A stretch of DNA of 64,000 nt from a virus (lineage: Duplodnaviria; Heunggongvirae; Uroviricota; Caudoviricetes): IMG/VR virus record IMGVR_UViG_3300005535_000017, positions 146,331 to 210,330 of that record. One strand, written 5' to 3'. Position 1 is the first letter of the stretch, and the number at the start of each line of letters is the position of its first letter. The notes beneath the pieces are model-generated. The model saw only the letters and a list, made by a program, of their open reading frames with translations. It was not told the DNA's origin and searched no databases. Positions 11,040-11,901 of this stretch are shown piece by piece. The position numbers were made by a program, and so were the translations under genes.

Positions 11040-11352
11040 AGTGGAGAGATAGGACAGACTCACCCCATTACACTGAGTAGATCGACCGCAACCAACAATC
11101 CTAACAGCCCTCGTCTCCGGCTAGCTCCCCAGGCGATAGCCTGGAGCTATCCCGCTGTAAGCCGATAAGCCCTACTCTGCAAAGTATGCGAAATTCCTTG
11201 CATTCTCCACCCCCGAAGTTACCAGGCAGGTGATGGTCTGTGACAATCCCAGCCTCTGTTGTCTCCCTACGGCCCTATAAGCCGGCTATGAGCTATCCAG
11301 CTACTAGACGAGGACTTGTGTTAGCCTCGATTGCGCCCCCTAAGGAGACCCA
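11040..11352. promoter_or_regulatory. divergent control region between leftward and rightward gene blocks
   Basis: 313 bp non-coding; dyad GCTAGCTCC...GGAGCTATCC; repeated ATAAGCC. Confidence 0.45.
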
Positions 11353-11712
11353 ATGGCCGATCAGGAACAGGAACCAGAGAAGGCGAATATCGGCGCTCTG
11401 ACCAATGCCGCAGTAGCAGCTATCGGCTTGGTAGCCGCTAAGGCGCTACAAGCGCATGGTGTCGTTACGCTGCAGGTAGGCGATAGCGGCTACATCGAGC
11501 TAGTTCCAGTAGGAGAGCTGGAGCTGGATAGGCTTTCAGAGCAGGAAGCGCTGCAGGAGCTGATCTCCAGGAACTACGCAGACAGCCAGTTGGCCGATTA
11601 TCTGCGCCAGAGAGCGCACAGAGCAGCATGGAAGCAGTACAGGCACCAAATGGAGCTGCAAAAGGAGCTCATGGAGGGGGCGCAATCCTCGTCCAAGGAC
11701 GAACATCGCTAA
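11353..11712 (+). CDS. hypothetical protein
   Basis: first rightward ORF; SD AAGGAG. Confidence 0.5.
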   Translation: MADQEQEPEKANIGALTNAAVAAIGLVAAKALQAHGVVTLQVGDSGYIELVPVGELELDRLSEQEALQELISRNYADSQLADYLRQRAHRAAWKQYRHQMELQKELMEGAQSSSKDEHR

Positions 11713-11762
11713 TCGCTAGACCTAAAACAAAGGGGAGCCAGACGGAAAACAGGGGGGACAGT

Positions 11763-11833
11763 GTGAACCTAGACCAGTGTCCCCAGTTTTTTTCTACCCC
11801 GTAGAGAGCGCGAAAGAGTGAACCTAGTCCAGT
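11763..11833 (+). repeat. direct repeats GTGAACCTAG(A/T)CCAGTG x2, each followed by a T-run
   Basis: 11763-11779 and 11817-11833. Confidence 0.5.
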
Positions 11834-11901
11834 GGGTGGGGATTTTTTCAGGGGGCTGATAGCGCGAGAAGGGCGTCAATTTTTTTCCTGGAGGACTAGC
11901 G

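Follow-up and report, generated by a model that had tools for sequence, protein, structure and literature searches.

The strand-switch interval and its conserved module

The DNA studied here is a 64,000-nucleotide stretch (the window) of the Caudoviricetes record IMGVR_UViG_3300005535_000017, positions 146,331 to 210,330, from an uncultured soil or rhizosphere jumbo phage with contigs of 207-210 kb and without a close cultured relative. Its base composition is phage-like (58.6% GC), and it is dense with small genes. The gene map, built with a codon-usage model trained on long open reading frames (ORFs) and in agreement with public gene calls, places positions 1-10962 wholly on the minus strand and the genes from 11353 mostly on the plus strand. 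We focused on the gap between these two blocks and on the first rightward genes, among them a conserved gene of 119 amino acids (aa). With a probability of roughly 0.6, we read this interval as a transcription-control and cassette-exchange hub heading two outward-facing blocks of small, mostly ORFan genes.

Contigs of relatives were found through homologues of the 119-aa gene family and of a minus-strand paralogue family. They include strains of the window phage itself (L024-L027, L031, L034, L036, L038, L041 and L042), a closest relative, L018, with 79% nucleotide identity over 11021-11794, and about nine more distant lineages (L016, L017, L019, L020/21, L022, L023, L028/29 and L032). The comparison revealed a conserved single-copy module composed of a 38-nt element (block 5), CTRTAAG motifs, the 119-aa gene and a G-rich element of ~115 nt, with hypervariable sequence right after it. 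Block 5 (CTGCAAAGTATGCGAAATTCCTTGCATTCTCCACCCCC, 11177-11214; consensus TGCAAAGTATGCGAAATTCCTTGCATTCTCC) lies 143-294 nt upstream of the 119-aa gene family and always on the plus strand. It is 93% identical in L018 (11177-11217) and carries 2-6 changes in L016, L019, L022 and L032, and neither the 64-kb window nor the parts of relatives' contigs that were examined contain a second copy.

The 119-aa gene (11353-11712, plus strand) is the first rightward gene and has 21 homologues at 39-99% identity, with 80% identity to L018. An AlphaFold2 (AF2) model of its product, with a predicted local distance difference test (pLDDT) score of 83, had no match at E <= 0.001 in a fold search against PDB and so gives no clue to a regulator or initiator role. 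The protein belongs to no Pfam family and has one marginal PHROG match whose function is not known (E = 0.0035). In the window lineage its last codons (..DEHR) lie inside the purine- and G-rich 3′ element (11678-11793, plus strand; GGCGCAATCC..CATCGCTAATCGCTAGACCTAAAACAAAGGGGAGCCAGAC..GGGGGGACAG..), which reads GGCGCAATCC..GACGA.CATCGCTAATCGCTAGACCTAAAAC.AAGGGGAGCCAGAC..GGGGGAGACAG.G and is recognisable in every relative. This element is 92% identical to L018, compared with 80% for the gene, and identity drops to 38% after 11794. In L019 and L022 it begins ~100-130 nt past the stop codon (CGCTAGACC lies at 98 and 129 nt), clear of the ORF, indicating that it is not conserved as coding sequence. 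It is conserved in sequence and not in structure: no consensus RNA fold was obtained from seven complete sequences plus a shortened L018 (-0.5 kcal/mol, three pairs, no compensatory change). A search of the window against Rfam returned only tRNAs at gathering thresholds, leaving the 3′ element without a match; at E <= 1 over 10900-12000, one match to a eukaryotic element was judged to be chance.

The original prediction had described a divergent gap of 313 bp. The strand switch is there, but the untranslated gap measures 369-390 bp (10963/10984..11352), the first leftward gene starting at GTG 10962, or at 10968 or 10983 in public calls. Within the gap, a 26-nt block (GGGCGCGCAGAAGGTCAGCAGTGGAG, 11021-11046) is identical to L018 at 26/26 positions between flanks of 20-39%, and a motif of the GGCGCR type within it is found again in the gaps of relatives. 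Identity to L018 is also high at 11148-11167 (TATCCCGCTGTAAG.., 90%), 11239-11284 (85%) and 11322-11352 (87%). The predicted imperfect dyad proved to be real, at 11119-11152 (TAGCT-CC-CCAGGC GATA GCCTGG-AGCTA), with 5+6 bp, a 2-nt bulge and a GATA loop. Its DNA ΔG of -10.1 kcal/mol is in the top 0.3% of 35-nt windows, a stability that 34 further places in the window equal or exceed. The ATAAGCC and GAGCTATCC repeats are present too, as short two-copy matches: GTAAGCC-GATAAGCC at 11157-11171, TATAAGCC at 11276-11283 and AGCTATCC at 11145 and 11291.

Given this divergent layout with conserved short blocks between the gene blocks, the dyad or other gap blocks might be bound by a phage regulator that chooses the direction of transcription. 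The dyad is among the more stable hairpins of the window, and palindromic GCyTTATAAGrsC motifs in the gaps of L021 and L023 would also suit such a repressor/operator switch. However, the dyad is lineage-specific, with 35% identity and a 7-nt gap in L018, while the neighbouring blocks keep 93-100%. There is no repeated operator sequence and no second copy of the dyad, and the window holds no sign of lysogeny. Pfam searches with ten flanking proteins gave no helix-turn-helix (HTH) or other DNA-binding family, PHROGs gave only matches of unknown function, and the 119-aa protein adds no fold match. The operator proposed on the dyad is thus not supported, and we consider a switch of this type unlikely.

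A G-rich cluster with a G4Hunter score of at least 1.5 follows the 119-aa gene by 60-230 nt in 8 of 10 lineages and is often the strongest of the locus, the gap upstream being C-rich. Conserved plus-strand G runs (G4Hunter 1.7-2.3) followed by T-runs were observed at 11745-11875 of the window and in L016, L019, L020, L022, L028 and L032, and a local flip of strand composition is centred on the gene, from the C-rich gap to the G-rich sequence after it. In the module, the 7-mer GGCGCA[AG] shows ~5-fold enrichment over 10 lineages (post hoc, P about 4e-13), and it was noted in the gaps of L019, L021, L022, L023 and L028. Conserved YLRQR codons account for one recurrent copy, and six lineages have a copy on the minus strand 2-46 nt ahead of the ATG. 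Moreover, a perfect 13-nt inverted repeat (left arm GATTGCGCCCCCT at 11329-11341, partner AGGGGGCGCAATC at 11675-11687) brackets the Shine-Dalgarno (SD) sequence and ORF of the 119-aa gene. We estimate that about one such pair is expected by chance in 64 kb, so its weight rests on conservation.

These features also bear on the suggestion that the gap is a replication origin, for which GC skew had been named beforehand as one check. The cumulative GC-skew minimum does fall within the gap, at 11340. An origin in the gap or in the G-rich element could use a transcript-primed R-loop or G-quadruplex with a T-run stop leaving the primer, a route for which T4 oriF/oriG and the mitochondrial CSBII element offer a comparison. 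Such an origin would fit a single-copy module conserved in sequence rather than structure and the G-rich clusters after a C-rich gap, and the GGCGCA[AG] enrichment is suggestive only. However, the skew tracks gene orientation, because in L019, where minus-strand genes follow the module on its right, the skew remains negative; the minus-strand block of the window at 31.9-36.9 kb is also skew-negative. The skew at the gap reflects the composition of the coding strands together with a local excess of C in the gap. GC content of the gap is 56.7%, with 100-nt bins ranging over 0.51-0.59; the window mean is 0.586 (sd 0.047), and there is no AT-rich stretch. The repeats, moreover, form no array of three or more iterons, only two-copy repeats, of which the 17-mer pair described below is strain-specific, and the Pfam and PHROGs searches of the flanking proteins revealed no recognisable replication protein nearby. 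The proposed origin is not supported by these results, and we regard it as very unlikely.

Promoter-like motifs beside the gap and across the genome

A motif with the consensus tCgG(A/G)GATAAGA(g/a) precedes genes throughout the window phage and its relatives. The 64-kb window contains 22 exact G[AG]GATAAG sites, of which nearly all are intergenic and have the next start codon 10-115 nt ahead; GAGATAAG is found 13 times in its intergenic sequence and never in its coding sequence. The motif also heads genes in all relatives examined (L016-L023), including the first leftward gene beside the gap. Among 100 motif sites from non-redundant loci, 19% carry an upstream T-rich box (TTCTT or a T-run; peak at -17/-18, ~12 nt upstream) and 18% a downstream T-run in the leader, compared with 3-3.6% at random-position controls, while no conserved element was found 17 nt upstream. 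Its position, orientation and conservation suggest that the motif is a promoter.

One such motif, GGGATAAGAG (10986-10997, minus strand; G(A/G)GATAAGA, core 10995-10988), lies 25 nt before GTG 10962, and the SD of this first leftward gene is GAGGAGG (10981-10975). Its position weight matrix (PWM) score of 17.7 is in the top tier of the window, and its position is kept in L018, L019, L021, L022, L023 and L028. The 10995-10988 motif is a candidate leftward promoter heading the leftward block, and it falls to the left of the interval that the original prediction had delimited. Inside the gap, GAGATAGG (11046-11053, plus strand; PWM 8.6) is a doubtful near-match that is not conserved in L018. We also observed a GGGATAAGAG motif at 8462 (minus strand) of L022. 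It lies between the stop codon of the 119-aa-family gene and the 3′ element, is directed back into the gene's 3′ end and may serve this lineage as an antisense promoter.

On the rightward side, CGCTGTAAGCC-GATAAGCC (11153-11171, plus strand) is a candidate promoter of a variant class, with block 5 beginning 8 nt later. Its 14-mer GTAAGCCGATAAGC recurs in L034 and L042, where a cassette gene's T-run leader follows 19 nt downstream, and CGCTGTAAG is kept in L018. Because the same 14-mer precedes a T-run leader in these two strains, we take GTAAGCCGATAAGCC as the candidate rightward promoter, and block 5 would then form the beginning of its transcript. Block 5 can itself be read as TGCAAA-N17-CATTCT, or else as the 5′ leader of the rightward transcript, and rightward transcription may tentatively be placed at GTAAGCCGATAAGCC and/or block 5. 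A second CTRTAAG motif related to the promoter core, CCCTATAAGCC (11273-11283, plus strand), lies 77 nt before the ATG, and yTATAAGr recurs in the gaps of L016, L021 and L023. The leftward motif and the conserved, rightward-oriented blocks before the first rightward gene support, by sequence and comparison, the earlier assignment of a promoter region.

In part of the genome the motif appears together with a hairpin. At 1438, 3102, 4793, 5514 and 8445, a GC hairpin with TTCTTAGCT or a T5 tail stands directly ahead of it, and this pairing resembles a terminator-then-promoter composite at a subset of sites. Separately, TAGCTAAGAAG flanks GC hairpins at convergent or gene-end sites (13449, 16315(-), 21742(-), 31619, 33332, 47800, 58010 and 1444), and its complement, CTTCTTAGCT, is the tail of the putative terminators directly before GATAAG promoters. 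The two may constitute a genome-specific bidirectional terminator signature.

The motif also accounts for the T-run strings that had been taken as ribosome-binding sites (RBS) between paralogue pairs at 14160 and 17018. The strings TTTTT(T)CTTGGGAT are present at 14161 and 17013, but the pairs are only half right, since the minus-strand genes are paralogous (39% identity) and their plus-strand partners are not (E = 9.3). At both places the TTTTTCTTGGGAT strings form the shared centre between two back-to-back motif copies, to which a single T-run is common. The first candidate bidirectional promoter, CTTATCTCC - AAATTTTTTCTTGGGA - GGTACAAGAAG (14139-14186), lies between a 212-aa paralogue (13482-14120, minus strand) and a 143-aa gene (plus strand), with the same layout in L018. 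The second, CTTATCTCC - GATTTTTCTTGGGA - GTGATAAGAG (16994-17039), lies between a 209-aa paralogue (16346-16975, minus strand) and a 148-aa gene (plus strand, ATG 17073). Three divergent regions of the window and one of L018 can be aligned on the layout CTTATCTCC - AAATTTTTTCTTGGGA - G.GA(T/C)AAGA. The two paralogues have 11 metagenome homologues and no known domain, and some relatives hold them as adjoining tandem pairs (L017).

Repeats, T-run leaders and cassette turnover

Downstream of the 119-aa gene, the two predicted 17-mers, GTGAACCTAG(A/T)CCAGTG, were found exactly, at 11763 and 11818. They are the sole two copies in the window and are followed by T7 or T6. Direct repeats of 16/17 within 100 nt number four in the window and none in 30 shuffles, and five of the seven plus-strand runs of at least six T in 64 kb cluster at 11787, 11843, 11880, 12362 and 14161, so that both the 17-mer pair and the T-run cluster exceed chance. 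The first 17-mer (11763-11779) makes up the loop and 3′ arm of a hairpin (GGGGACAGTG / CAGTGTCCCC, 11754-11793, plus strand) with a stem of 7+2 bp, one G-G mismatch and an 11-nt loop, followed by AG and T7, and the hairpin is present in both the minimum free energy (MFE) and the centroid folds. With its stem and T-run it looks like an intrinsic terminator, the loop being longer than the usual 3-8 nt; a terminator consensus scan missed it because its loop exceeds 8 nt. This hairpin form occurs only in the window, L031, L018, L041 and L042, while most other alleles read GGGTGGGG(A)TTTT or GGGTGGGG(G)TTTT.

The second 17-mer (11818-11834) and the second T-run (11843-11848) are created by a 55-bp segment (11773-11827, plus strand) that is missing in strains L024, L027 and L036, which have one 17-mer unit instead of two. 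In sequence, the first unit is similar to the L018-type allele but the second to the L024-type one; from these two different matches we infer unequal recombination between alleles. The 17-mers could instead be tandem protein-binding sites (iterons) with the T-runs as spacers, and the above-chance 16/17 repeat at 55-nt spacing speaks for this. However, the copy number varies from one to two among strains of one phage, only GTGAACCTAG is kept between alleles, and the 17-mer is mostly replaced in distant relatives, which makes binding sites of this kind hardly credible. The second 17-mer, like the dyad, is a lineage-specific by-product and not part of the core. The original prediction had made a lack of conservation of the repeats in relatives part of what would refute it; the 17-mer pair and the dyad are lineage-specific, and the T-run leader described next recurs across relatives. 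Two further scans gave matches that we rejected. Five matches to the 17-mer in IMG/VR were dismissed as chance, having no other similarity, and five marine metagenome contigs of 38-41% GC found with a degenerate 21-mer share the 21-mer only and are unrelated.

A U-rich leader with SD, CAA-T7-CC-TGGAGGA (11877-11895, plus strand), precedes the next gene, which encodes 152 aa. Its core AATTTTTTTCCTGGAGGA (11878-11895) recurs at 12363 with one mismatch. Runs of at least five T within 30 nt of the start codon occur at 3 of 112 genes, two of which are these neighbours, and CAA(A)T6-8C(C/T)TGG is found at the homologous place in L016, L017, L019, L020, L022 and L024. What had been called an unusual RBS is thus a rare T-run leader that recurs in relatives, but its SD is the canonical GGAGG. 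We rejected the T-run plus GATGAG at 11880-11907 as a promoter, as the -10-like part would overlap the start codon.

The 152-aa gene (11902-12360, plus strand) is an ORFan present in some strains only. Its product has no homologue but itself among 5.8 billion proteins, and scans of IMG/VR with this protein and with the alignment of the 212/209-aa paralogues gave no match. The gene is absent in L024, L027, L036 and L018, where the leader directly adjoins a 146-aa gene or another gene; in L024, L027 and L036 the leader CAATTTTTTTTCTGGAGGAG is joined straight to the 146-aa gene. At the right end of the 152-aa gene lies a second copy of the leader and SD, GAA-T9-CTGGAGGA (12360-12378, plus strand). 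Given that strains lack the intervening gene, the strings at 11877-11895 and 12360-12378 are direct repeats that end an inserted or deleted cassette, forming its left and right junctions.

Other strains differ in the same manner. In L031, another gene replaces 12368-13171, with breakpoints at the T-run at 12367, within the second leader copy, and at a GATAAG motif at 13172. Further unit types and genes are found in L034, L041 and L042. The hypervariable part thus holds the 17-mer/T-run unit once or twice, in several allelic forms, and the genes that follow differ by strain. Strain breakpoints fall on the CAAT(n)C(C/T)TGGAGG leader and the GATAAG motif; with the 55-bp unit included, the repeats in which indels and replacements break are the CAAT(n)CTGGAGGA copies, the GATAAG motif and the 17-mers. 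Between strains that otherwise share 96-99% identity, the 146-aa gene has 88-90%, and in L032 (877-1220, against 12480-12823 of the window) it keeps 86% nucleotide identity while the neighbouring conserved gene has 69%. These identities point to a probable exchange of cassettes between lineages.

Contig ends also gather at this locus. Among contigs of 13-207 kb from independent assemblies, ends within the ~1-kb module are far above chance. Relatives' contigs stop inside the module in L021 (207 kb, 47 nt past the gene), L020 (119.5 kb, starting 84 nt before the gene), L016, L017, L023 and L032, and contigs of the window phage end at 11085 (L009, L025) and at 11772-11786 (L026, L003, L008, L010). 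Such ends could represent the physical ends of the genome or a packaging site, perhaps a short terminal repeat with the 119-aa gene, joined only in assemblies. However, the window itself and many contigs run through the module, the breaks within one sample are branch points of co-occurring alleles, with L010 and L027 overlapping by 129 nt, and L034 and L041 begin 123-129 nt ahead of the first variant base. Because the breaks match allele branch points and the overlaps are about one k-mer, branching of the assembly graph at hypervariable sequence is the simpler cause, and we give genome ends very little credence.

A proposed control and exchange hub in its genomic and comparative context

Exact matches to window proteins sit on soil and rhizosphere metagenome contigs of at most 210 kb, and a megablast search of INPHARED phages gave no match to the window. 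An rIIA-like protein of 693 aa (52665-54746, minus strand; PHROG 612, E = 4e-96), adjoined by genes of 379 aa and 361 aa, has its best cultured-phage matches at 27-35% identity over about half of the protein, so that the host cannot be inferred from it. An array of 43 tRNA genes (38217-47560, plus strand) covers most amino acids with few small ORFs between them, and ahead of it the region at 36.9-38.2 kb shows almost no coding signal. The minus strand also encodes a 931-aa protein with a major-vault-protein shoulder domain (58054-60849; E = 1e-23) and a 474-aa protein with WGR, PARP regulatory and PARP catalytic domains (49789-51213); shoulder and PARP-type domains are typical of eukaryotes, and here they occur in a phage genome. 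An adenylosuccinate-synthetase homologue (62757-63914, minus strand) lacks ~65 N-terminal profile positions, and a PurZ-like role in 2-aminoadenine DNA is a possibility. Near it lie ThyX and a fusion of LigD-type phosphoesterase and ATP ligase (55861-56817, minus strand, and 61327-62760, plus strand).

In the hub that we propose, the GATAAG motif would act as a -10-like element for a polymerase whose specificity is set by the phage or is non-canonical in some other way. The rightward gene would be read from GTAAGCCGATAAGCC and/or block 5, and in the window strain the hairpin and T7 would terminate or attenuate its transcript. The T-run leader may raise translation of the gene behind it. The short repeated regulatory sequences would in turn supply the homology for recombination that inserts, deletes or swaps cassettes, in the manner of the promoter-early stem-loop (PeSL) elements discussed below.

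Several observations weigh against this reading. The promoter, terminator and leader assignments all rest on sequence position and conservation, and a scan of 10500-12500 for sigma-70 consensus promoters and terminators gave no sites. The rightward promoter is the weak step, because the GATAAG at 11164 is altered in both L031 and L018, and L018 has TGTAAG where the window has TATAAG. Block 5 fits poorly as an ordinary promoter, since its spacer is conserved as much as its ends. Termination is not a feature of the family, because the loop is of 11 nt and the hairpin is missing from most alleles. Finally, block 5 and the 3′ element, which are conserved best of all, receive no role in our explanation. 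In another reading, the module, with block 5, the 119-aa gene, the structure-less G-rich element and the T-runs, would be a dedicated cis-acting device of this phage family instead of a common set of promoter and terminator sequences, for instance an immediate-early switch or a transcription-primed start of replication, and the anchor for loading cassettes. A transcript from a unique promoter would then meet the conserved G-tracts (R-loop or G-quadruplex) and stop at the T-run. We consider such a device improbable.

These results give a first working map of candidate transcription signals (promoter-like, terminator and leader motifs) for a soil jumbo phage lineage without a cultured relative. 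The metagenome contigs from several samples offer a view of one locus in one phage, where strains differ in the number of regulatory units and in accessory genes joined at short repeats. With the analysis, an origin call from GC skew, attractive but unsupported, can be set aside.

The closest parallel is found in the PeSL cassettes of T4-like phages (Arbiol et al. 2010, PMC2839356; Comeau et al. 2014, PMC4122927). Each combines the stop codon of the gene upstream with both a terminator stem-loop and a promoter, together with SD and start codon. The cassettes are concentrated before small ORFans, and the indel and replacement breakpoints between close relatives lie in the repeats (PMC2839356, PMC4122927). 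The window likewise has repeated intergenic composites before small ORFans, with breakpoints in the repeats, and its genome also has an rIIA homologue. It differs in that the putative promoter part is a compact GRGATAAGA with an optional T-rich box ~12 nt upstream, and not a sigma-70 consensus. Moreover, the recombining repeat at the 152-aa cassette is a U-rich leader with SD and not a full promoter, and the composites of the window are predicted from sequence, in a phage that is not demonstrably T4-like. The idea that regulatory repeats serve as recombination joints would thus extend beyond T4-like coliphages, to a promoter that is not of the sigma-70 type.

Compact phage promoters offer a second comparison. 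The T4 late promoter consists of the -10 element TATAAATA only, and the T4 middle promoter has a MotA box ~12 bp upstream of its -10. Jumbo phages with their own RNA polymerases have AT-rich early-promoter motifs of roughly 10 nt (PMC7598289). The GATAAG motif resembles these as a ~10-nt, A/T-containing motif near the start, present at many early-type operons, without a canonical -35 and with a short spacing to its upstream box. However, it matches none of these consensuses, and within the window no gene was identified for an RNA polymerase or a sigma-like factor.

In the order of its parts, the locus is similar to lambda pR-cro-nutR-tR1, where divergent early promoters are followed by a small first gene, a conserved non-coding element, a terminator and further early genes, but the hairpin here is not conserved among relatives, no repressor or antiterminator was identified, and no boxA/boxB match was noticed, with no scan directed at one. 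The T-run leader recalls the U-rich translational enhancer leaders, such as that upstream of T7 gene 10, where an A/U-rich tract lies 5′ of a strong SD. The tract of the window is also placed just 5′ of the SD; in contrast, it is a near-pure T7-T9, occurs also upstream of the candidate promoters and doubles as a recombination junction. Taken together, the proposed hub is of a familiar kind: candidate phage promoters diverge from it, its first gene is small and conserved and ends in a terminator-like sequence, and repeats similar to PeSL stand before swappable ORFans. New are the promoter-like motif, the conserved single-copy module and the view, at the level of a population, of how cassettes turn over at one locus.

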